Shown in pieces: positions 49,193 through 62,669 of a stretch of DNA of 64,000 nt. Both the position numbers and the translations under genes were made by a program. This DNA is from Escherichia coli (GTDB taxonomy: Bacteria > Pseudomonadota > Gammaproteobacteria > Enterobacterales > Enterobacteriaceae). The notes below the pieces were generated by a model. It saw only the letters and a list, made by a program, of their open reading frames with translations. It did not search any database and had not been told where the DNA came from. The stretch is taken from assembly GCA_032372955.1 (NCBI GenBank), contig GCA_032372955.1_4725.1, one strand, 5' to 3'. The first letter of the stretch is position 1. Each line of letters starts with the position of its first letter.

Positions 49193-50023
49193 ATGTATCC
49201 TGAAGCATCGTGGCAGGAAGAAGCGTTATCTAAAATAAACGCTTATCTCCAGCATCCGTTGTCTCTGTCAGACATTACGTTAACGCCAGCCTGGTATGGT
49301 GCATCAGGTCGGTTACGCCTTTCTATAGCCCCCACACCACAATCGGTTTACTACGTCGAAGACCCCGTACAGGTTTATCTTCAACGTCGCGATATTAATA
49401 AGCTCTTTATCAAACACCAACCTTTTATTGTCGTTGCTGATATGACGACGACAGCAGACTGCTTAACGCAGCTGTTTAAGAAGTATGGGTTGAAGATCGA
49501 TTTAACGATCTTTGATTCTTCAGCGTTAGCGTTACCGGTTAAATTTGAAAGCGGTGAGAAAACCATATCTGTTCCCGTTCTTTCTGACGCATCAGCATCG
49601 TGGTACGGTACGTTTCAATTCCTCGCACGAAAAGATGTAAGTGCCGATATTAGCGAACTGATTACGGTACGAGAACCGCTAACCTCGTATTATCCAGAAG
49701 ATAGTAAACAAGGGGATTTCCACACATTCAGTACATACGGCATCAAGCTAAATATACCGCCGCAAGATGCGATACGTTCGATGTCGGTTGGAGATACTCC
49801 CGAAGGATACAACGCATTCCGTTTAGCCTCATCGCTGATTTCAATGAGTTATACCTCAGCTTGGGAACTCATCACAACAGCCAGTGTCGTTTATAATGGA
49901 AAAGTTGCCGATGCGAACGATTTAGATGTTCCAATACTTCCGTCGTTCGGAAGCTCTGTTCTGGTGTTAAAACCTCATTCCGATAGCGGCGTCAGCAGCA
50001 AACTTTATTTTAGTTACGATTAA
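49193..50023 (+). CDS. hypothetical protein (possible virion/tail component by position)
   Basis: 276 codons, GAGGT RBS; first gene after terminator 49076..49134. Confidence 0.5.
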   Translation: MYPEASWQEEALSKINAYLQHPLSLSDITLTPAWYGASGRLRLSIAPTPQSVYYVEDPVQVYLQRRDINKLFIKHQPFIVVADMTTTADCLTQLFKKYGLKIDLTIFDSSALALPVKFESGEKTISVPVLSDASASWYGTFQFLARKDVSADISELITVREPLTSYYPEDSKQGDFHTFSTYGIKLNIPPQDAIRSMSVGDTPEGYNAFRLASSLISMSYTSAWELITTASVVYNGKVADANDLDVPILPSFGSSVLVLKPHSDSGVSSKLYFSYD

Positions 50024-50036
50024 GGTGGAGTAAATA

Positions 50037-53000
50037 ATGGCGACATTCTTACCTGACGATAAGCAGGATCTGGTTGACCAACTCAATATACTAAATAAAA
50101 CAGATATCCCGGTTGATGGTATCGCAGTCACTGCTGTTGGCGATAGTCAAAAACTTGATGGTGTTGGAAAATACACGGGGACGGTTACGGTTAATAAACC
50201 AAAACGGTCATTCGCGACATTGTTTCCGTTCGGCGCGATCATGAAAAAAGAAACCGGTGATGAGGATGTTACTGGTCGCGCTGCGCTCGCGTTGTTGAAC
50301 GAGCAGTTCCATCTGACGATTGCAGAAAGTTACTTCACAGAAGAATCTTTAAATGCGACATACCAGTTAGGGACATGGAACAGCATCTTCGCACAAATCG
50401 CTTTAGAACCAACCGAGGATAACCCGTACTGGAAAGATACGCTGTTCATCTCAATGTATCGGTCAACGCTAGGTGCTTTGGAGACATATAGTGCAAGCGC
50501 ATCATCGAGTATTTATGTTGATTTAGGATCGGCTAGAAAAGCGTTCGATCTGAATCGTACTGGCGTATACAAGTTACCTTTACCAACAACGTCCGGTAGT
50601 GTACCGAACCGTTATGAATGGTGTCAGTTATTAGAGATTACCCCATCGGTGGTTGGTGGACAGATTGATTGGAGCAACTACTTAACGCTGGAGCCGTTAA
50701 CGCCGACGTTCCCAGTGATGGAAATCAATACAACCTATTACTTCTTGCTCTGGACATTTAACCGTAAAGATTGGCACGTGAAACAAATCACCGCATCGGA
50801 GCGTTATAACGATGTTGCTCAACTTATCGGTAAATGGGTGCTTACGGCGTCGCCGGTTAATTTCGTTGGTTATGGTCATGCAAGATTCTTAACCCGAAAT
50901 ACGGGAACGTTTACCAATCCAGAAACCGATCATTACGTGTTAAATGAAAGCGGGGTCATGGTAAACAACCGTCATTTCATTGCAGCGACACGACAAGAAG
51001 CGCAACCGGATGGTGACGCAACAACAGAAGGACAGTCGCTGTTAATTCTGGGTGCTGGTATATTCAGTCATACAACGGATGATACCAAGCTTAAAGCGCA
51101 CTATCTCACATTAGCAGAGTCATCGTTCGATGCGTATATAAAAGCGTTCTATGCGGACCTTGAACCACCGGATACACCGGCACGCTGGATCGCTAACTGG
51201 ATTGTTAATGGTAAACAACCCGTGCTGGCCCATTATCCTCTTGCAAAAGACGATTACCCAACACACGGTGGTTTCCATGACACCGCGGTTACATTTACCA
51301 ACGGTATTGGAAAAATAACACACGGCGCACCCACGTTCGGGGAATACATGGATCTTGTTGTTCAGGTCTATGAGGGTAAACTCGGCTGGCAGAATTTGAA
51401 CGCGGATGTGTTCAAAACCAATGATGATGGGACAATTGACTGGGATACAAAGGGTACGGTGTTTCCTATCGAGAAAGTTGCGTTACGCACAAAACGTTAC
51501 GTAAGTGCGGACGGGGACGATCTTGAAGCGTGTACTGACGATGAAGTAGGTACCATCGTACTCAAAGATAAATCCGTCAACGGCTCTTACTTGGTTGCAT
51601 GGGCACCCCGTGTTCCTGTTGAATACGGTGGATACCTCATCAAAACAAACGAGTGTCAGCATAACCGACCGATCCAGGTGCCGGTCACCAGAGACTACAT
51701 GGGAAACGCGTCAGACGCTGAACAGTGGTTTTGTGAAGCAGCCTACACCTTATACCGTTTAACGCAGCAGGAGCGTTATCAGAAAGCGTACAAGGCATCG
51801 TTGTTTACGATTGAAGAATATACCCGTATCGACGCCAATGATAAGTTCTTCCGTCAGGTAAAAGGAACCGATCGTTACGACACCGACGGTATCGCTTACA
51901 CGTATACATACCCATCGAAAGCACCGTTTACAATCACGCGTGATACCGATGGCTGGATCGTGATTCAAGCATCTTCAGCACAAATTTACCTTGAGCAGCA
52001 GGCCATTCCGTTCCGCGTCAATCGTGATTCAATTCTTCGTGTAACCTGCGGAGGTAAAGATACAGCAGGTGTTGCAATTCCGGTTGAGATCTCATTATCG
52101 CTTTCTTTGGACAAAACCGAAGCGAACGCCAAAACGTACAAGCTGGTTTTACCTTCCAGCGTTGAACCGAAAGGATGGGATTTCAAAATAGGCTCGTTGA
52201 TTCCTGCTGACGCGGTTGATGAAGCTTCAACACCAACCGGTGATGCTGTTACAGGTTCTGTGTTGATATCGGCTGATAAAGTCGGCTGGAAAGATGATGT
52301 CGCCATCACAACAGAATTCAGCGAAGCGGTGGAAGATTCCTGGGATGGGTTGTTCCTAAAAGCGCAGCTTACTGCAGCAGGCGGGCAATTTGAATTCAAT
52401 CCAACCGCAAAACAGATCGTAAGGCAGGTCAGTTATTTCGCGTCGATTGACTACAACGTTCGTGTAGAAGATGCAAATGGTTGGCGATGGTGGTATATGC
52501 TACCGGCTACCACAGCAAGAAATACATTGACGCTTTCGGCGAACGGATGGACGCTCTCAGGGTATCAACCCGGACACGCTGATACTGACCCTAGACCTTC
52601 CGCACCCGTGTGGGGCGATGGCTCAACTGAAATTCTGTTCTTGCCTGACGACAGCGATATCGCTGAAGGGGTATTTAAGCTTTACGCCATCAACAATCCA
52701 CCGTCAACATACACCACCGATGACGGATATACCATGTTGTTTACGTTAAAAGCAACCTTTGAGGCAGAGGGAACATTACGTGTTGGTGATTGCACGATTG
52801 TCAACCAACGTCTCGATCCGTTGCCTTATACTCCGGGTATTATTCCGTTCTCGAACAACTATATCCCTAACGCACCGACGTTCGACAGTTGGCGTGGTCA
52901 GCCTTATCCCGGCTACCAGCATCCATGGGTTTTCCTGGATATGGACGTACCGGCTGAACGACGTGACCTCATGATTCAGAACGTTGTGAATTTCTGGTAT

Positions 53001-53633
53001 GATTCACAGCAGTGGTATTATCAGAAATTCGGGGTTTTAGGGCCGGGTGCGAGTGCGTACGTGTGGGATCGTTGGGATGCGCCAAGCGGATCAAAAGTTA
53101 ATGATTTTACGATGTACCACTTCGGCGATCAGACGGCATGGTCTGGTTATCAGCCGAGGGCTTTCTTTTCAGCGGTGAGGCTTTATGCTGGACTGCTCGA
53201 TCGTGGTTTGGCTGTCCCTGAGAAGTTATCCACTTACATCAGTCACTGGATCGATTTCTTGTTTACGTATCAACAGGAAAACGCTTATCAATCTCCTACG
53301 GATTTTCCGATGGATAAACCTCCTGCTTTTATTCCTAATGACTTTACTGGTCACATGGCAGGATTATGGTTGGCGGGTGCGTCGTTAGCAATGTTGTACG
53401 GACATCCCAACGATAAAGGTTATTCTGTTGCTGTTAATGCTTATAACGAAATCGTTGGGAACTACATCAACCATTACACCGTTGACGACGTAATGAATGG
53501 TGGGTGGAGTCCTGCACCAGATAGCGCTAATCTCGGTAGAGACGGAATGTATTTTGGTTTCTGGAGTGGGGAGATCCTCCGAGGATTAGGCTATTATATT
53601 GCCTTATTACGTGATGTAAAACCAACAATTTAA
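50037..53633 (+). CDS. large putative virion structural protein (tail/baseplate-associated)
   Basis: 1198 codons, AAGGTGGAG RBS; immediately upstream of fibre genes; no enzymatic motif identified with confidence. Confidence 0.55.
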   Translation: MATFLPDDKQDLVDQLNILNKTDIPVDGIAVTAVGDSQKLDGVGKYTGTVTVNKPKRSFATLFPFGAIMKKETGDEDVTGRAALALLNEQFHLTIAESYFTEESLNATYQLGTWNSIFAQIALEPTEDNPYWKDTLFISMYRSTLGALETYSASASSSIYVDLGSARKAFDLNRTGVYKLPLPTTSGSVPNRYEWCQLLEITPSVVGGQIDWSNYLTLEPLTPTFPVMEINTTYYFLLWTFNRKDWHVKQITASERYNDVAQLIGKWVLTASPVNFVGYGHARFLTRNTGTFTNPETDHYVLNESGVMVNNRHFIAATRQEAQPDGDATTEGQSLLILGAGIFSHTTDDTKLKAHYLTLAESSFDAYIKAFYADLEPPDTPARWIANWIVNGKQPVLAHYPLAKDDYPTHGGFHDTAVTFTNGIGKITHGAPTFGEYMDLVVQVYEGKLGWQNLNADVFKTNDDGTIDWDTKGTVFPIEKVALRTKRYVSADGDDLEACTDDEVGTIVLKDKSVNGSYLVAWAPRVPVEYGGYLIKTNECQHNRPIQVPVTRDYMGNASDAEQWFCEAAYTLYRLTQQERYQKAYKASLFTIEEYTRIDANDKFFRQVKGTDRYDTDGIAYTYTYPSKAPFTITRDTDGWIVIQASSAQIYLEQQAIPFRVNRDSILRVTCGGKDTAGVAIPVEISLSLSLDKTEANAKTYKLVLPSSVEPKGWDFKIGSLIPADAVDEASTPTGDAVTGSVLISADKVGWKDDVAITTEFSEAVEDSWDGLFLKAQLTAAGGQFEFNPTAKQIVRQVSYFASIDYNVRVEDANGWRWWYMLPATTARNTLTLSANGWTLSGYQPGHADTDPRPSAPVWGDGSTEILFLPDDSDIAEGVFKLYAINNPPSTYTTDDGYTMLFTLKATFEAEGTLRVGDCTIVNQRLDPLPYTPGIIPFSNNYIPNAPTFDSWRGQPYPGYQHPWVFLDMDVPAERRDLMIQNVVNFWYDSQQWYYQKFGVLGPGASAYVWDRWDAPSGSKVNDFTMYHFGDQTAWSGYQPRAFFSAVRLYAGLLDRGLAVPEKLSTYISHWIDFLFTYQQENAYQSPTDFPMDKPPAFIPNDFTGHMAGLWLAGASLAMLYGHPNDKGYSVAVNAYNEIVGNYINHYTVDDVMNGGWSPAPDSANLGRDGMYFGFWSGEILRGLGYYIALLRDVKPTI

Positions 53634-53734: not shown

Positions 53735-53838
53735 CGGAATTTTATGCGGTCGTCTGGACTGTTTACGCTTACCTCGAATCGCACTTTGGTTTCGAGGAGT
53801 TATATATCTTAATTTGATTGTTGGAGGAGGGTGCGCTT

Positions 53839-54366
53839 ATGCGTTCACTTTACCCGCCATGGAAAGACGAACTGATTACGTTGATAAACAGACGTAACAG
53901 TAGCGTGTTCAGCAGCTCCGATCTTACATTAACCTTGGATGGGAGTTCTGGTGCTAACAGGGCAAAAGTGATCGTCACAGCAAATGAAGGAACAAAGTGG
54001 TGTGGTGAAAGTTTTATCGTTTACGCCCGACGCGATATCGCGAAGGCATTTTTAGGAATACCGGTAAAAATCGTTTTAGAGTCCGTTGAGACAACAACTA
54101 TACATGCGATTATTCGGGCGATTTCAGATCAATACGGGTTCGTCTTTGACCCCGACGTTGATTTTGATGCGGTTACCCTTGCCACTGTTATTGATTTTCG
54201 TGACGATATATCCAAAAAGATTTCTATCCCCATCGCGAATACCTCCATGGTTTGGCGTGGTCGATTGGATCTTACTGTGACAAACCAACACGATGTATCT
54301 CCGGCTCATCTTTACGCCGGTGCCACAACCGTCATTGGTGATATCATCACTATTTATCCAGGATAA
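53839..54366 (+). CDS. short protein carrying the shared receptor-binding-protein N-terminal anchor domain
   Basis: ATG 53839 after GGAGGAGGG RBS; WKDELITLIN..ARRDIAKAFLGIPVKIVLE..DQYGFVFDPDVDF paralogous to N-termini of 10243..11694 and 60057..62669. Confidence 0.5.
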   Translation: MRSLYPPWKDELITLINRRNSSVFSSSDLTLTLDGSSGANRAKVIVTANEGTKWCGESFIVYARRDIAKAFLGIPVKIVLESVETTTIHAIIRAISDQYGFVFDPDVDFDAVTLATVIDFRDDISKKISIPIANTSMVWRGRLDLTVTNQHDVSPAHLYAGATTVIGDIITIYPG

Positions 54367-54372
54367 AACACC

Positions 54373-57300
54373 ATGAGTACAGCATATATAACGGTAGTTA
54401 CCGATAAAGGAGCAGAACGTATCACCGCTGCGTTACTTCCCGACGGTGAGAAACTAAAAATCACACACTTTGCCGTTGGTGATGGTAACGGCTCGATCCC
54501 AACCCCGAACGCCAGCCAAACAGCGCTTGTTCACGAAGTTTATCGTGGGGAAGTTTCTAATATCCACGCGGATGGCGATAGCACAACCAGGATTATCGTT
54601 GAGGGTATTATTCCTGCTGGTCAAGGTGGGTTCTGGGTACGTGAGATCGGTCTGTACGATGACCAAGGTGTTCTGATTGCCGTCTGCAGTGCACCAGAAA
54701 GATATAAGCCTACGCCTACCGAAGGCGCAACCAGCGTTCTTAACTGCCAGGTGCATGTCGTTGTTAGTAATACGAGTGCGATACAGCTTAAGGTGTTGGA
54801 TAACGCATTTCTTCCTGATGCAACGACTGCTACACGCGGTTTAACTATTCTAAGTAATGAAACCGATAGCGACGACGAGACAAAATCGGCCACGCCTAAA
54901 GCTGTTAATGCCGTTCGTAAACAATTGCCCGTTGTTGTAACAGATATTCGTGACCGTACCAGCGGACGAGTGGCTCTACCCGGTATGTTCGGTTATGGGG
55001 CAATACTTACCGACGTTAAGAATTTTAGCGGCACCGCTGGAGTAACAGAATTCTTAACATGGGTTAAAGCCGCAACCCCGGGGATTTACCAGGTATCACA
55101 GTCAGCTGGAGACAATAAAATAATTCCAGGAGTGACGTTTACCGGTCTTATTGAAATCAATTACATCAGCTCGTCACGGAACAGTTCTGGCCCACAAAAC
55201 GAAGAGAAGGGAATATTCTTTTTAGGCGTTAACGGTGACTTCTGGTATAACCGTTATCATGCCAGCAGTGGTGGTTCTCTCATCGGGTGGGAAAACCTGA
55301 AAGTCGATGTCGACGCACTTAAACGTCTCATCGCGCTCAAGGCAGATCTTAATAGCCCTGTGTTCACCGGTATCCCGGCAGCGCCCACCGCAGCAGTTAA
55401 CAATAGCAGTCGACAGATTGCCAACACGGAATTTGTGATGCGCGCGATCGCAGCGCTGATCGACTCGTCACCAGCGACGCTAAATACGCTTAATAAGCTG
55501 GCTCGAGCTATAGGAAGTGATCCTAATTTCGCAACGACGGTAACAAATGCGTTAGCTGGGAAGCAGCCCCTTAACGCATTACTGACCGCCTTTTCAGGTT
55601 TAGCAACATCAGCAAACAAATTCCCGTATTTTACCGATACGAATAAGGTTGATTTAGCGACGATCACACCGACAGCACGGACGTTACTACAGCAATCTAG
55701 CATTGAAAGCATGCAAGCATTGTTGCGGTTATCGGCAACACTATTCCAGCGTTTTCGAGGACAGCTCCCCACCGACGCAAATCTGAATACCTACGGTCCG
55801 GTTGAAGCGTCTGTGGGTATTTGGTCTAAACCAGTATCAACGAACGCGGACGTCGCCCACAATTTCCCTGAAGCAAATGCCGCAGGTTACATTGAAGTGC
55901 TCCCAACTGGGCAATTCGGTGGAACGCAACGTTACACTGTATGTACAGGCAATATTTACGTACGTAGTTTAACGGCAGCATGGAACGGCCAGGATGGTCC
56001 ATGGGATGATTGGCTGAAAGTGGGTAATAATGCAGCCACAGCAGCTAAACTTGCTACCGCAAGAACGATAGGTGGCGTCAGCTTCGATGGTTCTGCTAAC
56101 ATCGATCTCCCCGGTGTTAACAAAGCTGGCACCCAGAATACCAGCGGTAACGCTGCTAGTGCAACCAAGCTACAAACTGCACGTAGAATCGGTGGCGTTG
56201 CCTTTGACGGAACAGCGGATATTGCATTACCGGGTGTGAATGCGACAGGTAACCAAAACACCACGGGGAATGCGGCAACCGCCACGAAATTGAAAACCGC
56301 TGTTACGATCGGCGGTGTGAGTTTCGATGGTTCGGCCAGCATCAGTCTACCGGGTGTTAACGCCGCGGGAAACCAAGACACCAGCGGAAACGCAGGAAGC
56401 GCAACCAAAATTCAGACCGCGAGAACCATCGGGGGTGTTTCTTTTGATGGTACTGCGAACATTGATTTACCAGGCGTAAATAAAGCGGGCACGCAAAATA
56501 CCAGCGGCAACGCGGCTACAGCGACAAAGCTACAGACCGCCCGTAAAATCGGTGGTGTTGCGTTCGATGGTACGGCCGATATCGCATTACCAGGCGTTAA
56601 TGCGGTTGGCAATCAGAATACGACGGGTAACGCCGCGACAGCCACGAAATTGAAAACACCGATCACGATCGGCGGAGTTTCTTTTGATGGCTCTGCTAGC
56701 ATTAACCTACCAGGTGTCAACGCGGCAGGTAATCAAAGCACTTCCGGAAACGCTGGTTCAGCAACAAAACTTCAGACGGCGAGAACCATAGGGGGCGTGT
56801 CCTTTGATGGTACTGCCAACATTGATTTACCGGGTGTGAACAAAGCAGGTAATCAGAGTACCTCTGGTAATGCGGCTACTGCCACGAAACTCCAAACAGC
56901 ACGGAAGATTAATGGGGTCGCCTTTGACGGTACAACTGATATTAGCTTTAGCATTAACGTGCTCGCTTCCAAGGGACGGGTCACCGCTTTAGCTAATGCG
57001 ACCCAGGGCAGCAGTACGGGTATTCAGATGTATGAAGCGTACAATAACGGATACCCTACAGCCTACGGTAACATTGTTCATCTTAAAGGTGCTTCATCGG
57101 TTGGTGAAGGTGAAATCCTCATTGGGTGGTCGGGTACCTCGGGCGCGCACGCTCCAGCTTATTTACGTTCGCGTCGGGATGCAACCGATGCGAAATGGTC
57201 GGAATGGGCGCAGATCTACACATCTAAGGATAGTATCCCGGGTGTGAATACAACAGGTAACCAAAACACCACGGGGAATGCGGCAACCGCCACGAGGTTG

Positions 57301-58251
57301 CAAACGGCAAGGACGATTGGTGGTGTCTCATTTAACGGGACGGCAAATATCAACCTGCCTGGGGTAAACACCACCGGTAACCAAGACACGACCGGTAATG
57401 CTGCCACGGCGACAAAACTGAAGACAGCCCGCACCATTGGTGGGGTGTCTTTCGACGGTAGTGCGAACATCAATCTGCCTGGTGTTAACGCCGCGGGAAA
57501 CCAGAATACATCAGGAAACGCAGCAACGGCAACGAAGTTGCAGACCGCGCGCACGATTAACGGTAAACCTTTCGATGGTACAGCTAATATCACGTTAGCA
57601 GCTAAAGATCTTGGTTTAGCCGATTCTAGTGGATATGTCGGGCGTTTACTGAATATGCGGGTTTTCACATCGTCAGGGACGTACACCCCAACACAAGGAA
57701 CAAAACGGATTAGAGTAACGATAACCGGTGGTGGCGGTGGCGGTGGCGGTTGTCAGGCTTATTCCAACAGCGAAACGTTTTTTGGCGCTGGAGGAGGAGC
57801 TGGCGGAACAGTAATTTCGGTTATAACGGTAGCAGCTGCTAGTTATTCTGTTATAATTGGTTCTGGTGGTTCCGGTGGCTCTGGGGCGACGAATGGGAAC
57901 GGGGGTGGAGATAGTAAATTTGCATCCCTGCTAACTGCTCCCGGCGGGCAAGGCGCAGGAAAAACAACTGTCACAAACACTGGCGGTGGCTATGGGGGCG
58001 CACCTACTACCGGGGATATACGCATTCCGGGTGGAGACGGTAGCGATGGACAAGCCGGTACTCTTGCCGCCGGTGGATGTGGGGGTGCGTCATATTGGGG
58101 CGGTGGCGGTCGCGCTGGTGTTGGCACCGCCCATAACGGCCTCGCGCCTGGTTCGGGTGGTGGTGGTGCTTACGATAACTCTTACTCAGGAACCGCTAAG
58201 CCTGGTGGGCGTGGCGCTAATGGGATTTGCATCATCGAGGAGTTTATGTAA
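54373..58251 (+). CDS. long tail fibre protein (P2 gpH-like N-terminus, tandem 37-aa fibre repeats, Gly-rich C-terminal tip)
   Basis: N-terminus [42 protein letters not shown] resembles phage tail-collar fibre domain; 13 repeats of [40 protein letters not shown]; C-terminus rich in GG/GGxGG. Confidence 0.85.
56028..57600 (+). repeat. in-frame tandem repeats (111 nt / 37 aa) inside the tail-fibre gene; boundaries approximate
   Basis: Nine consecutive units then four more after a non-repeat spacer; protein near-identical, DNA mostly diverged at synonymous sites, but an identical ~40-nt stretch (CAGGTAACCAAAACACCACGGGGAATGCGGCAACCGCCACGA) recurs near 56247 and 57252. Confidence 0.8.
57727..57750 (+). 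repeat. (GGT/GGC)8 glycine-codon microsatellite in the fibre tip
   Basis: GGTGGTGGCGGTGGCGGTGGCGGT encodes an 8-Gly run. Confidence 0.6.
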
Positions 58252-58667
58252 TGAGTACATTATACGCTGTTATTGAAAATGGAGTGGTAGTAAACACGAT
58301 TGTTTACGACGGTGAAGCAGAGCTCGATATATTCGACAATCAGCAGTTGGTTCATATCGACGATAAGGAGGCTGTGTCACCTGGAATAGGTTGGTCATAC
58401 TCAAATGGTGAGTTTACCGCACCTCCGGAACCCGAGCGGCAACACGAAGATCTCGTCGCCGAGGCAGAACAGATAAAACAATCTTTGATTGATTCTGCGC
58501 TGGCTTCCATCGATCTTATTCAGTTAAAATTACGGGCTGGGCGAAAACTGACTCCGGAAGAAACGACCCGACTTAATGCTGTTTTGGATTACACTGATGC
58601 GGTGACTGCTGTCGATACCGATGCTGCACCAAATATCGATTGGCCGGAATTTCCTACAACTGTGTAA
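58251..58667 (+). CDS. tail fibre assembly chaperone (Tfa-like)
   Basis: ATG overlaps fibre stop (TAATG); [21 protein letters not shown] ... DAAPNIDWPEFP typical of lambda/P2-type Tfa. Confidence 0.75.
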   Translation: MSTLYAVIENGVVVNTIVYDGEAELDIFDNQQLVHIDDKEAVSPGIGWSYSNGEFTAPPEPERQHEDLVAEAEQIKQSLIDSALASIDLIQLKLRAGRKLTPEETTRLNAVLDYTDAVTAVDTDAAPNIDWPEFPTTV

Positions 58668-58708
58668 TTACTATGGAAATCACTCCCGTTAACACATGAG
58701 GAAATCCG

Positions 58709-59215
58709 ATGACAAAGAAACTTTGCGCGATCGTTCTTGGTATGCTGATGGTGCTTTCTCTGGGTGGGTGTGCTACGCTGGAAGGTTTACCGAACCTGGA
58801 TAAAGACCTGACGCAACTGGTGGGGTTAAAACCTGTTGAGAAGAACAGCAATCTCGCTGTGTATTCTTGCTGGGGTGCAACCCAGGAATTCGAACATTGG
58901 AAACCGAAGTTCTCAACCACTGAAATCTGGAACGATAAGGTTCTGGTTGTGGATGAAGGTAGTCAATTTACCGTTGACTCTCCGGTAACCGTTTTCGAGT
59001 CCACCCAGTTGTATACCACGGTGAAAGACTACGTTGACCTGGGGTTCAATACCGCAACCAGCGAACGCTTCTACCGCATGAACAAACCAACATTGTCTTA
59101 CGCAAGTTCAACCCTGAACTCGAACGGCGATGGTGTTGGGATGGTCTTCTTCAATTGTTCTACCGACCGTGCATTGATCGCTGATCCCAACTCCATTGAG
59201 GTTATCAGTAAGTAA
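58709..59215 (+). CDS. lipoprotein (signal peptide with lipobox-like LGGC)
   Basis: MTKKLCAIVLGMLMVLSLGGC N-terminus. Confidence 0.55.
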   Translation: MTKKLCAIVLGMLMVLSLGGCATLEGLPNLDKDLTQLVGLKPVEKNSNLAVYSCWGATQEFEHWKPKFSTTEIWNDKVLVVDEGSQFTVDSPVTVFESTQLYTTVKDYVDLGFNTATSERFYRMNKPTLSYASSTLNSNGDGVGMVFFNCSTDRALIADPNSIEVISK

Positions 59216-59223
59216 TTAAGTAC

Positions 59224-59263
59224 GCTCCTCCAACCCGTCAGGGAAGGAGGAGCTGCTATGGCG
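59224..59263 (+). terminator. stem-loop with 14-nt loop AACCCGTCAGGGAA plus GCTATGGCG
   Basis: GCTCCTCC(59224-59231)/GGAGGAGC(59246-59253). Confidence 0.5.
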
Positions 59264-59392
59264 TCATCGTATGAAATTTCCTTTTTGAGAATAGAAACGA
59301 GGTAGAAAATGGCGATAGCGCGAACTATAGGGTTCACGTCCAGCACACATCCGATATCCGCCACTTCAACCACCAACGTATAGGACAAGACC

Positions 59393-60034
59393 ATGGCTAT
59401 AAGTACAGATAAAACACCGAATAGCGGCGCACGTTTACAAGATGGTAACTCATGGCACGATAACACCGACGCTTACTACAACACCATGATCTGCTGGACG
59501 TTCGACGTTCGTGATATTGCGACACAAGTCCAGAACAATTATCCTGGTACCAAATACCTCGAATCGATAAACGGCTATGTGAACACAAAAGAAAAGAAAC
59601 ACGGACAAGGTACCAACCCCGTTATCATTCCGAATATTCCACCGCAGCAATTTACCTCACTTAAGAACATGAGTCCGTCGCTATGGTGGAACGCGGGCGG
59701 ACGCGGTAGCAACGGCAATGTGTATTGCGACTCGCGTAGTCACACTTGGCATCCATGGAACGCGAATGCGAACTGGTCAGCCGTCCCTGTGACCGAATTG
59801 TTATCGTCGCCTTTACCCGTTGCGTTTGTCTTTAAGGCGGTTTCTGGTAAACATAACGTTGCGGTATGGAATTGCCATCTCCACAATTTAACTTTCTATT
59901 ACATCCGTCCCGGATTCCCTGGTTGGTGTGGTAACATCATGAGCCAGAATGGTAGAGCTGTTCCAGGCTGGGTATCACAACTCGTCAGCGGGAACTGGTT
60001 AACTTCCTTCGTGGGCGGTAAGCAGTACATCTAA
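59393..60034 (+). CDS. hypothetical Trp-rich protein
   Basis: 213 codons. Confidence 0.5.
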   Translation: MAISTDKTPNSGARLQDGNSWHDNTDAYYNTMICWTFDVRDIATQVQNNYPGTKYLESINGYVNTKEKKHGQGTNPVIIPNIPPQQFTSLKNMSPSLWWNAGGRGSNGNVYCDSRSHTWHPWNANANWSAVPVTELLSSPLPVAFVFKAVSGKHNVAVWNCHLHNLTFYYIRPGFPGWCGNIMSQNGRAVPGWVSQLVSGNWLTSFVGGKQYI

Positions 60035-60056: not shown

Positions 60057-62669
60057 ATGAAGTTACATGAAACCGCGCAAAATGAAATACTAAGATTGGT
60101 CAACGAGAAAAACGGACTTTCTCTTACTTCCGACGATGTTGTATTTGCACGTGTTCTATCGGCACCCGAAACAACCTCCATTCTTTTTAAAGGGAAAGAT
60201 GGAAGCCGGTATTACAAATCCGTATTCGTCTCGTTGGTTAAACGAGACCTCGCTAAAGCGTTCTTGGGAATACCTGTCAAGATTATCATTGAAGAAGATA
60301 CCCAGTTACGTGAAATCATGCAAGAGGTCGCTGACCGTTACGGTATTGCCTTTGATCTCGCAACCGACTTCCTACAAGGACAATTAAATAAAACGACAAC
60401 AACGTCTACCACAGGCCGCCAATCCGTTAAAGTAACAGCGGATGAGGGAAGTTTGGTTTGGGCGGGCGATCTTGTACTAACCGTTGAAAACCGTAAATAC
60501 AACCTGTTGTCGCTTATTCAGCATCTTGACCTTACCGGACTGAAATATCTTAACGACGATAGAACGAAGGGTGACGTCGAGTTATTGATTGCTGGCATCG
60601 ACCCCGTTCGCTTTGTAGGTCTCGCAAACTTACAACAGGGTGAGGTCATTTACCCCGCCTTAGCCCACCGCATCGCGGATGCGATTCATCGAGAAAACGC
60701 GCCGGAAGATATCGGTTTACCCGCGCTACGTGGGTTATTTGAAAACGCAACAGTCACGAAGGTCGAACGTACGGACCTCGGCGATGCGTACAGTGTTCCG
60801 ATTAATACGAACGACCATTATCAAGGTACTGCCGTATTCCATCTCAATAATGGCAACCCTAAAGGCGCACCAACCTACCGCTACGCAAAAGGTACGCGTA
60901 ACCTCTGGCAACCGATGTATTGGATTATCAACGGTCAGTCAACAGAGAACTTCGCGGTTGTCAGTGAAGACATGGTACTTAATGCGTATATGCGATGCCA
61001 TACCGCTAACGGGTTGGTCGGGATAGAATGGCGGACAACGGATACGCTGGATCACGGCTGTATTGCGTATGATCCCATGACGTCGTTGCTTGGTTTGATC
61101 TTTAAAGCGAAGATCACGTTTACTGGCGATCAGCGTAACTTTGCAGATACCGAACACCCGCCGGTTTTAACCGTTGTACACAAAGACGATAGCCGTCAGT
61201 ATATCTCATTAACCCGATACGCGACAGATGTCTCTGAAGACGGTAGAAGCGCAATCGTAACGATCGATTTCAACGACGCAATGGCGGGGTTCTATGCTGA
61301 CGAACCTATCGAACTCGAATCGGTAACGTCGTTGATGTTCAGCATGAGTTCTCGACATTATAAGGAAGATGCGACTGAAACGACCTATCTGGAAACACCG
61401 ATCGACCTCGGCTTAACCATCGAGATTCTTCCTATCGATGGGGTGTATCAGGAAATGACGGTTAGTCGCCACCACTGTACGCCACACGAACTTCGTGCGA
61501 TAACCGCTTATGATGACCATTACAACATCACGCCGGAGCGTGTATTTGAGAACCTGGTGTATGCGGGATATCAAGATGAATTAGTGCATTATGTTGGGAT
61601 GTCGCATTTCTACGATACTGTCTGGACACCAAGTGCGGGTAAGTTACTGGTGAACACCACGGATGTATTAAATCCGCCCTGTATTGCGTGGCATGAAGCG
61701 TTCGCCGCATATGCTGCAAAACACCATTTCTCTGTCACCATCAGTTTAAGTTACGAATTGATGAGTACAGCATGCCCGTTCGAGTGGGCGCAGCAGGATT
61801 GGGAAGGAAACATCGCAGCAACCGGATATACGCCACCGTCTTGGTTGTTGTCTCCATGCAACCAACAGGCGATGGCGTGGTTAGGGGATGTGTTAACCGC
61901 GTTTGCCGATATCATCTACCCTCATGTCCAGGACATTTGTGTGCAGGTAGGTGAACCTTGGTGGTGGATCAACACGGCGAACAACAAACCGTGTATCTAC
62001 GATTACCAAACCAAACTGGCTTTCAATAACCGATATCCCAACAAATATGCCGCAGACATCGGTGATATCAACAACCCATTATCCGGCGGTGACTACGATC
62101 TCTACGTTGAGTTTTGTAACGACCAGTTAGGATACAGTTGCTGGAATCTCGTTAACCGGGTAAAATCGAAATACACGCAGATCAAAACCGGTATTCTTCC
62201 GTTCTTACCGACGATCATGTCGAATGCGTTCACGGAGAAACTCAATCTTCCCAAAGCATGGTATAATCCAGAGAAATTCGATCGGTTCTATTCGGAGTGT
62301 TACGACTGGATTATTGAGACGCATGTCACCAAGGCTGAGCAAGCGATCACCATTCCGCGAGATACGCTTGGTTTCCCGGTTAGTCAGATCCACTATTACC
62401 TGGGATTTGTTCCTGGTGAAGATCTCGCACCGCTTTATGGATTCGATGTTAAAACGCCGTATAAACGCGAACTCTGGAAACGTATCATGGGTAACCACGC
62501 AAATAACCTGGATATGTTCGAAGGACTCACTCAGTACATCTGGGCGTATCCGCAGTTCATCGGTGATAGCATCATTCCAGGCCAGGTTCCCGAAGAGTTT
62601 TATTTCCTCGGAAAACGTTATGATATCATTCGTACGGACATTCCTTTTGATTTTACGCCGGACGCTTAA
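60057..62669 (+). CDS. putative receptor-binding protein / tailspike with shared N-terminal anchor domain
   Basis: GAGG RBS; N-terminus NEILRLVNEKNGLSLT..VKRDLAKAFLGIPVKIIIE..DRYGIAFDLATDF paralogous to 10243..11694 and 53839..54366; large unrelated C-terminal domain. Confidence 0.55.
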   Translation: MKLHETAQNEILRLVNEKNGLSLTSDDVVFARVLSAPETTSILFKGKDGSRYYKSVFVSLVKRDLAKAFLGIPVKIIIEEDTQLREIMQEVADRYGIAFDLATDFLQGQLNKTTTTSTTGRQSVKVTADEGSLVWAGDLVLTVENRKYNLLSLIQHLDLTGLKYLNDDRTKGDVELLIAGIDPVRFVGLANLQQGEVIYPALAHRIADAIHRENAPEDIGLPALRGLFENATVTKVERTDLGDAYSVPINTNDHYQGTAVFHLNNGNPKGAPTYRYAKGTRNLWQPMYWIINGQSTENFAVVSEDMVLNAYMRCHTANGLVGIEWRTTDTLDHGCIAYDPMTSLLGLIFKAKITFTGDQRNFADTEHPPVLTVVHKDDSRQYISLTRYATDVSEDGRSAIVTIDFNDAMAGFYADEPIELESVTSLMFSMSSRHYKEDATETTYLETPIDLGLTIEILPIDGVYQEMTVSRHHCTPHELRAITAYDDHYNITPERVFENLVYAGYQDELVHYVGMSHFYDTVWTPSAGKLLVNTTDVLNPPCIAWHEAFAAYAAKHHFSVTISLSYELMSTACPFEWAQQDWEGNIAATGYTPPSWLLSPCNQQAMAWLGDVLTAFADIIYPHVQDICVQVGEPWWWINTANNKPCIYDYQTKLAFNNRYPNKYAADIGDINNPLSGGDYDLYVEFCNDQLGYSCWNLVNRVKSKYTQIKTGILPFLPTIMSNAFTEKLNLPKAWYNPEKFDRFYSECYDWIIETHVTKAEQAITIPRDTLGFPVSQIHYYLGFVPGEDLAPLYGFDVKTPYKRELWKRIMGNHANNLDMFEGLTQYIWAYPQFIGDSIIPGQVPEEFYFLGKRYDIIRTDIPFDFTPDA

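Follow-up and report, generated by a model that had tools for sequence, protein, structure and literature searches.

A probable long tail fibre of a Goslar-like jumbo phage: mosaic build, recoded repeats and an exchangeable tip and chaperone cassette

A stretch of 64,000 nucleotides (nt) from the Escherichia coli assembly GCA_032372955.1 (contig GCA_032372955.1_4725.1), referred to here as the window, contains an open reading frame (ORF) of 1292 amino acids (aa) with a small gene for a tail fibre assembly chaperone (Tfa) directly behind it. The locus raises the question of which structure these two genes build, where its parts come from and which of them change between related phages. Very probably the two genes specify a long tail fibre, in a jumbo myovirus of the Goslar type, and a chaperone for folding its tip. 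This fibre is an allele of one already annotated in Escherichia phage vB_EcoM_Goslar, and an ordinary modular build from well-known modules. What is new is the map of an exchangeable tip and chaperone cassette and a catalogue of natural variants, with four tips and 5-11 repeat units.

By its sequence, the window belongs to a jumbo myovirus of the family Chimalliviridae that is closely related to Goslar, a 237-kb nucleus-forming phage of E. coli. The DNA is 90% identical to that of Goslar across the fibre region and 95% identical across the 24 kb flanking it upstream. The fibre protein shares 83% identity with Goslar gp090 (1324 aa), annotated as tail fiber protein (YP_009820775), and the chaperone corresponds to gp089, annotated as tail fiber assembly protein. 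Genomic position, neighbours, domain order and a one-base overlap between the two genes are the same in both phages, and the two tips are 97.7% identical. Goslar differs in having 7 + 4 repeat units where the window has 8 + 3, in a unit 4 that combines parts of window units 4 and 5 as a hybrid, and in carrying 32 extra residues after aa 457 (window numbering). The shorter form in the window lacks them at 55741-55744 (aa 457/458), right before the domain called knob A below; long and short forms both occur in the population, as proteins of 1324 versus 1292 aa and of 1244 versus 1212 aa.

The overlap in the window is a single shared base (TAATG), the last of the fibre stop codon TAA at 58249-58251 and the first of the Tfa start codon. 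A GAGGAG Shine-Dalgarno sequence stands 8-13 nt upstream of the Tfa ATG at 58251, and an AGGA lies about 9 nt 5′ of the fibre ATG. This ATG was taken as the Tfa start in agreement with the annotated Goslar gene; the mechanical ORF list began at a TTG at 58227. In a scan for promoters and terminators, promoter-like sites occurred only at shuffled expectation. Terminator-like sites exceeded it, most of them on the minus strand within the fibre gene, and none was interpreted.

The fibre is assembled from parts with different relatives. At E <= 0.01 it matches three Pfam families, PF12571, PF03406 and PF21722, all well above their curated cut-offs. It also matches 51 PHROG families, most of those listed being annotated as tail or tail fibre, and a scan of NCBIfam gave nothing useful. 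The PF12571 match spans residues 1-141 and profile positions 1-140 of 150 (140.4 bits, cut-off 23; E 6e-41). Outside Goslar, the best matches of the N-terminus in the phage collection are the gpH proteins of P2 and Wphi, at 40-42% identity, with gpH matches overall at E 1e-37 to 9e-44; against residues 1-199 of gpH from the Yersinia phage L-413C, identity is 40% over 199 columns (E 2e-39). P2-family phages (P2, Wphi, L-413C) have the PF12571 N-terminus, the PF03406 repeat and knob A in common with the window. Knob A, which has no Pfam match, resembles two tandem domains of L-413C gpH (residues 234-323 and 333-420) at 38-43% identity (E 8e-21 and 8e-16). L-413C gpH also carries the 40-aa repeat motif described below, as a single copy at 640-671 just before its variable C-terminus, where the window has eleven units. 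A Tfa with a related C-terminal helix region, gpG, is encoded downstream of gpH in this family. In contrast to the window fibre, gpH ends in a different C-terminal receptor-binding region without Gly_rich_2, and it serves a 30-kb temperate myovirus with a simple baseplate.

Other parts of the shaft point to P1. The central segment is 57% identical to residues 323-456 of an S-type fibre, paired with a U-type Tfa, from the P1-like phage-plasmid p91 of E. coli (NZ_CP023381), in which the motif reads SPxxLxTLNELA, and residues 355-413 match the solved chain 9d93, named 'Tail collar fibers gp4' (E 1e-8). The p91 fibre continues with a tandem array of the same 40-aa unit followed by the same glycine-rich tip: its last three repeats and tip are 76% identical to those of the window over 337 residues, and tip plus Tfa are 68% identical in nt. 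The classical P1 record is not among the tip matches. Because gpH shares N-terminus, knob and motif, and the p91 fibre shares centre, array and tip, the window fibre is a mosaic in which parts resembling P2 gpH are joined to others resembling P1 S. A second non-repeat domain, knob B, splits the repeats. Fragments of it are 65-82% identical to parts of E. coli phage tail proteins, and an AlphaFold2 (AF2) model shows six strands at moderate confidence (predicted local distance difference test score, pLDDT, 70.7). A Foldseek search with this model returned nothing at E <= 0.001; its top fold matches, the C-terminal region of T4 gp34 (E 0.11) and the R1 and R2 pyocin fibres, are non-significant and only suggestive. 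Paralogy of the two knobs was considered and is unsupported, BLASTP finding only a short shared motif, Y.RS...W..W.

The downstream gene is a member of PF02413 (Caudo_TAP; 72.5 bits against a cut-off of 22.1, E 5e-20). Its PHROG matches, phrog_188, phrog_3792 and phrog_105, are all annotated as tail fibre assembly proteins, its C-terminus resembles L-413C gpG (E 1e-5), and a search of the PDB gave no match. The initial annotation of the window, made without database searches, had proposed a mosaic long fibre of 1292 aa with a P2 gpH-like N-terminus, overlapped by one base by a Tfa of the lambda/P2 type, and the coordinates and family memberships given here confirm each of these points; the N-terminal motifs that it cited are also there.

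The last 217 residues contain 30% glycine and 11 glycine-rich motifs. PF21722 (Gly_rich_2) covers aa 1100-1289 (57670-58239) with 46.5-48.2 bits against a cut-off of 24.3 (E 6e-12) and spans profile positions 2-224 of 226; the family is carried by all 120 listed homologues of the tip. Tips of 66-72% identity are common among E. coli prophage fibres, and DNA resembling the tip and Tfa is found in 2084 of 5426 complete E. coli genomes, with 262 genomes covering at least 80%. The NCBI name of the 308-aa prophage homologues, 'carbohydrate kinase', is a misannotation, since the only Pfam families recorded in them are PF21722 and PF03406. The sole solved chain that aligns over the whole tip (aa 1099-1291) is gp24 of the cyanophage Pam3 (PDB 7YFW, 7YPX), a fragment of which (chain residues 85-275) scores barely above the PF21722 threshold (25.7 bits, cut-off 24.3, E 1.4e-5). 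In its structure, a lattice of glycine motifs carries variable loops at the distal end and is held by gp25, a chaperone of the TfaMu-like kind (PMC9608196). Pam3 resembles the window in pairing a glycine-rich tip with a Tfa-like chaperone for folding. It differs in the minimal size of gp24, only 280 aa with a shaft that is helical, and in the release that has been proposed for its chaperone.

The natural history of the locus is visible in its relatives. A whole-protein search listed 120 close relatives, many of them on contigs of 234-244 kb, so Goslar-like phages are common in public assemblies. Repeat number, proposed earlier as a character to compare, varies among them from 5 to 11 units, with 3-8 units in array 1 and 0, 1, 3 or 4 in array 2, and the protein lengths form a 40-aa ladder of 956, 996, 1132, 1172, 1212, 1252 and 1292 aa. 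When the units are mapped onto one another, some alleles differ by single units lost or gained and one by an entire 360-nt super-repeat: a 5 + 3 variant is without window units 3-5, which is exactly one super-repeat.

Four tip types occur in these relatives, each directly after the last repeat. The Gly_rich_2 tip of the window and Goslar (217 aa) is followed by the same Tfa gene in both. A 152-aa tip without family assignment has no Tfa, and the next conserved gene follows the fibre directly. The same arrangement is found behind a Peptidase_S74 tip of 310-314 aa, which brings its own intramolecular chaperone domain and likewise has no Tfa. A Collar tip of 246 aa is accompanied by a different ORF that overlaps the fibre stop codon and whose N-terminus we take to be lambda Tfa-like. 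The chaperone thus co-varies with tip type across Goslar-like genomes. DNA homology to a relative with the Peptidase_S74 tip (L004) ends at 57615 and resumes at 58672 with 96.9% nt identity, boundaries that enclose both tip and Tfa; the two are therefore swapped together as one cassette, with the last repeat as its left junction. An invertible tip switch of the P1/Mu type was ruled out, since 57300-59400 is free of inverted repeats and the vicinity lacks a recombinase gene. In p91, a degenerate recombinase gene fragment does lie beside the fibre genes, whereas the window tip has no flanking inverted repeats. At the p91 locus (L007, 2628-6399), the neighbours of the Gly_rich_2-tipped fibre are a truncated pseudogene of Tfa and a recombinase fragment with a frameshift, and the ensemble resembles an invertible tip switch that has decayed.

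Contigs of 234-244 kb bearing Goslar-like fibres are present in many assemblies, under the labels E. coli, Salmonella enterica and Shigella. It would seem that these lytic jumbo phages often accompany sequenced isolates, as a carrier state or as contamination, and some of them may infect Salmonella or Shigella.

Most of the distal shaft consists of a tandem 40-aa repeat. TRF reports periods of 120 and 360 nt in the fibre gene (score 927 for the 360-nt period), and a motif scan and a self-built hidden Markov model (HMM) both give 11 units, ten full and one partial, arranged 8 + 3 around knob B. The HMM matches array 1 at E 1e-27 to 1e-28 and finds no further copies in the fibre. Units are 68-95% identical to one another in protein and 57-80% in DNA. 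The initial annotation was right about the three-unit super-repeat, about recoding at synonymous sites and about one exact duplicate of some 40 nt; however, it gave the unit as 37 aa, counted 13 copies and called them protein-identical, and these values give way to those above. It had also termed the repeats T4-type. What they have in common with gp37 is one 31-aa motif, present also in gpH and P1-like S: T-even gp37 (T6, RB14 and others) contains one copy, 64.5% identical over 31 aa, and the gp34/gp37 Pfam domains PF21446 and PF20744 are absent from the window fibre at E <= 0.01, while a T6 gp37 control matches PF21446. As a single copy, the 40-aa motif is found in gp37 of T-even phages, in P2-type gpH and in PAK_P-like fibres of Pseudomonas; arrays of it are present in Goslar, in some cyanophages and in phages of Shewanella and Acinetobacter. 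Two minus-strand ORFs, 55956-56408 (150 aa) and 57216-57686 (156 aa), fall inside the arrays; they look like by-products of repetitive, stop-poor sequence, and nothing was found to indicate that they are genes.

Where two units have the same residue, they also agree in codon in 33.3% of cases, while codon usage in the gene predicts 34-37%, and the mean DNA identity of units is 66.6%, against 67.3% for random back-translation. Because both values match random expectation, synonymous sites between units are fully randomised. Even super-repeat partners (unit i versus i+3), which are 95% identical in protein, share a fraction of only 0.38 of their codons. The single exception is an exact run of 43 nt shared by units 3 and 9, the length of which was reached in 0 of 2000 codon-randomised simulations and which is probably a gene-conversion patch between the two arrays. 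The arrays of Goslar and of L004 also lie at chance level (0.33-0.34). In the p91 fibre, by contrast, DNA identity reaches 100% among three of the five units, which makes the recoding a property of Goslar-like arrays and not of the motif.

Taken together, these features suggest how the fibre might work. The P2 gpH-type N-terminal domain presumably docks a fibre trimer on the baseplate. The shaft would comprise the P1 S-like segment, the two knobs and the eleven 40-aa units, the number of which would set its length and reach. At the far end, the Gly_rich_2 domain is presumed to bind the host surface through variable loops that terminate a lattice of glycine-rich strands. Translation of Tfa is probably coupled to that of the fibre gene through the overlap; the chaperone would be required for folding and trimerising the tip with which it is paired, and it may remain attached there in the virion. 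The two are inherited and exchanged as a cassette.

Several observations weigh against this interpretation. Goslar maps from cryo-electron microscopy did not resolve the fibres, and a P2-type N-terminus would have to dock on a peripheral baseplate of the phiKZ type. The direct link between the tip and Pam3 gp24 is weak (phmmer E 0.28; full-length hhalign 2.5% probability), and the tip alignment, run as a profile against PDB sequences, gave no match at E <= 10. An AF2 model of the tip, built with 32 homologues of 64-71% identity, reached a mean pLDDT of 44.6 and stayed below 50 across residues 104-224, so the fold of the tip is presumed from Pfam membership. Goslar also encodes many other candidate host-recognition proteins, among them DUF7941 proteins with carbohydrate-binding or hydrolase domains, whose genes flank the fibre on both sides. 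On E. coli BW25113, Goslar needs lipopolysaccharide (LPS) with the outer-core glucose GluII, and its receptor-binding protein is listed as unknown. Because of these other candidates, DUF7941 included, the LPS dependence is not assignable to this tip. Finally, Goslar gp089 was identified in the virion by 2 peptides, in a preparation that by the authors' account also captured non-virion assemblies, and the presence of Tfa in the virion is for that reason tentative.

The last point bears on the fate of the chaperone. Tfa may be transient and released before virion maturation, as proposed for Pam3 gp25, which covers the putative receptor-binding distal loops so that its authors infer release (PMC9608196); given the thin peptide count and the composition of the Goslar preparation, this is a serious possibility, though not the one preferred here. 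Mass spectrometry of CsCl-purified Goslar virions nevertheless gives gp089 about 52 copies per virion (range 35-82), near the 43 or so of gp090 (range 29-68), a hint that Tfa does not leave the fibre. For Tfa proteins of the Mu and P2 types, retention on the fibre has been reported. The identity of the tip is another matter on which readings diverge. The initial annotation had likened it to gp38-type adhesins, and the tip is indeed glycine-rich; in gp38 of T6, T2 and S16, too, glycine-rich motifs alternate with variable segments. It is very unlikely, however, that the tip is an adhesin of the T2/T6/S16 gp38 family fused to the fibre end. It has no match to PF05268 or PF21721 (GP38, Gp38_N) at E <= 1, where a T6 gp38 control reaches 1e-70 on PF05268; hhalign of the tip profile against T6 gp38 gives 1% probability over a run of only 11 poly-G columns. 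The window fibre has no gp34, gp37 or gp38 Pfam domain and no detectable homology to gp38. Moreover, gp38 is small, is made as a protein of its own and docks on gp37; the domain in the window is part of the fibre chain and needs Tfa. A resemblance at the level of fold may still exist, because the Pam3 lattice, which belongs to the same Pfam family as the tip, has an architecture likened by its authors to that of S16 gp38 (PMC9608196).

Doubts of a different kind concern the role of the whole fibre. It may be accessory or secondary, orienting the baseplate or triggering contraction while the DUF7941 'fibre cloud' or collar filaments recognise the host. The fibre gene is embedded among DUF7941 genes, whose products, by the estimate of a Goslar preprint, number more than 2500 in each virion and are proposed there to be the first to touch the host, and the protein that binds LPS GluII is listed as unknown. 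Such a division of labour is conceivable but doubtful: tip swaps and variation in repeat number within genomes that are otherwise 92-97% identical are the usual signature of a host-range determinant, and the copy number of gp090 is roughly what a few trimeric fibres would require. The two roles are, moreover, compatible with each other. As for the shaft, synonymous diversification could, instead of being simply old divergence, have been selected as an adaptation against recombinational collapse of a long array, a proposal to which codon sharing at random level, in super-repeat partners as well as in Goslar and L004, lends some support, as do the DNA-identical units of p91, by which recoding is not intrinsic to the motif. 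It seems quite improbable nonetheless. The arrays have not been stabilised, as their length still varies widely, from 5 to 11 units, and conversion is still going on, as the 43-nt patch shows. Comparison between phages gives 77-98% identity for orthologous units, as against 57-84% for paralogous ones; this is consistent with purifying selection acting on duplications of old date or on the products of unequal crossover between alleles that had diverged. Returning to the fibre as a host-binding organelle folded by its own chaperone, a bolder version would combine a Gly_rich_2 lattice capped by equimolar Tfa in the virion, recognition of LPS GluII by this tip and a selected, codon-scrambled shaft of tunable length. 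This combination is unlikely. If it were true, the Goslar-type fibre would be the first tractable E. coli Gly_rich_2 adhesin fused to a fibre, analogous to gp38 and of a different family.

Table 1. Positions of the fibre and chaperone genes, their parts and the flanking DUF7941 genes in the window.
Feature	Coordinates	Strand	Remarks
Tail fibre gene	54373..58251	+	1292-aa ORF; ortholog of Goslar gp090
N-terminal tail-collar fibre domain, P2 gpH type (aa 1-141)	54373..54795	+	PF12571
Phage_fiber_2 repeat (aa 151-182)	54823..54918	+	PF03406, E 3e-8; aligns with gpH residues 168-199
Central shaft segment, P1 S-like (aa 313-453)	55309..55731	+	motif SPxxLxTLNxLAxAxGxDPNF
Knob A (aa 458-552)	55744..56028	+	common to P2-type gpH
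Repeat array 1 (aa 553-859)	56029..56949	+	one partial and seven full 40-aa units; three-unit (360-nt) super-repeat
Exact 43-nt duplicate, copy 1 (unit 3)	56245..56287	+	
Knob B (aa 860-955)	56950..57237	+	96-aa non-repeat beta domain splitting the repeats
Repeat array 2 (aa 956-1075)	57238..57597	+	three 40-aa units
Exact 43-nt duplicate, copy 2 (unit 9)	57253..57295	+	
Tip (aa 1076-1292)	57598..58248	+	beta-strand segment, then glycine-rich domain; presumed receptor-binding end
Exchangeable tip and chaperone cassette	57616..58671	+	left junction at last repeat unit
Tfa (tail fibre assembly chaperone) gene	58251..58667	+	138 aa; ortholog of Goslar gp089
DUF7941 gene, gp093 counterpart	49193-50023	+	
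DUF7941 gene (weak match)	50037-53633	+	1198 aa
DUF7941 gene	53818-54366	+	182 aa
DUF7941 gene	60057-62669	+	870 aa; plus PF23844, PF23845

The DUF7941 genes on either side of the fibre (Table 1) correspond to the Goslar 'fibre cloud' proteins gp91, gp92, gp93 and gp86. In the 870-aa protein, PF23844 and PF23845 are the N-terminal domain and the TIM barrel of an N4-type non-contractile tail sheath. One relative (L005) has an extra gene of 584 aa, with DUF7941 and DUF285, inserted upstream of the fibre. Directly after Tfa lies a 168-aa ORF (58709-59215, plus strand), the ortholog of Goslar gp088, which at about 737 copies by mass spectrometry is among the most abundant unexplained virion proteins. 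Its N-terminus, MTKKLCAIVLGMLMVLSLGGC, resembles a signal peptide with a lipobox-like LGGC behind it, and for a virion protein with lipoprotein features the copy number of gp088 is odd. The ORF is kept at 96.9% nt identity whichever tip type precedes it, and its sole match is phrog_9559, a family of unknown function.

Goslar is the E. coli model of nucleus-forming jumbo phages. The domain map, the cassette boundaries and the natural variants together provide a direct design for engineering host range and for testing which protein reads GluII. The locus also shows that a phiKZ-like lytic jumbo phage takes its receptor-binding module from a pool that it shares with the P2, P1-like and lambdoid temperate phages of its host. 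Such a shared pool is what classical work on fibre mosaicism leads one to expect, and in this respect the locus is confirmatory and not surprising.

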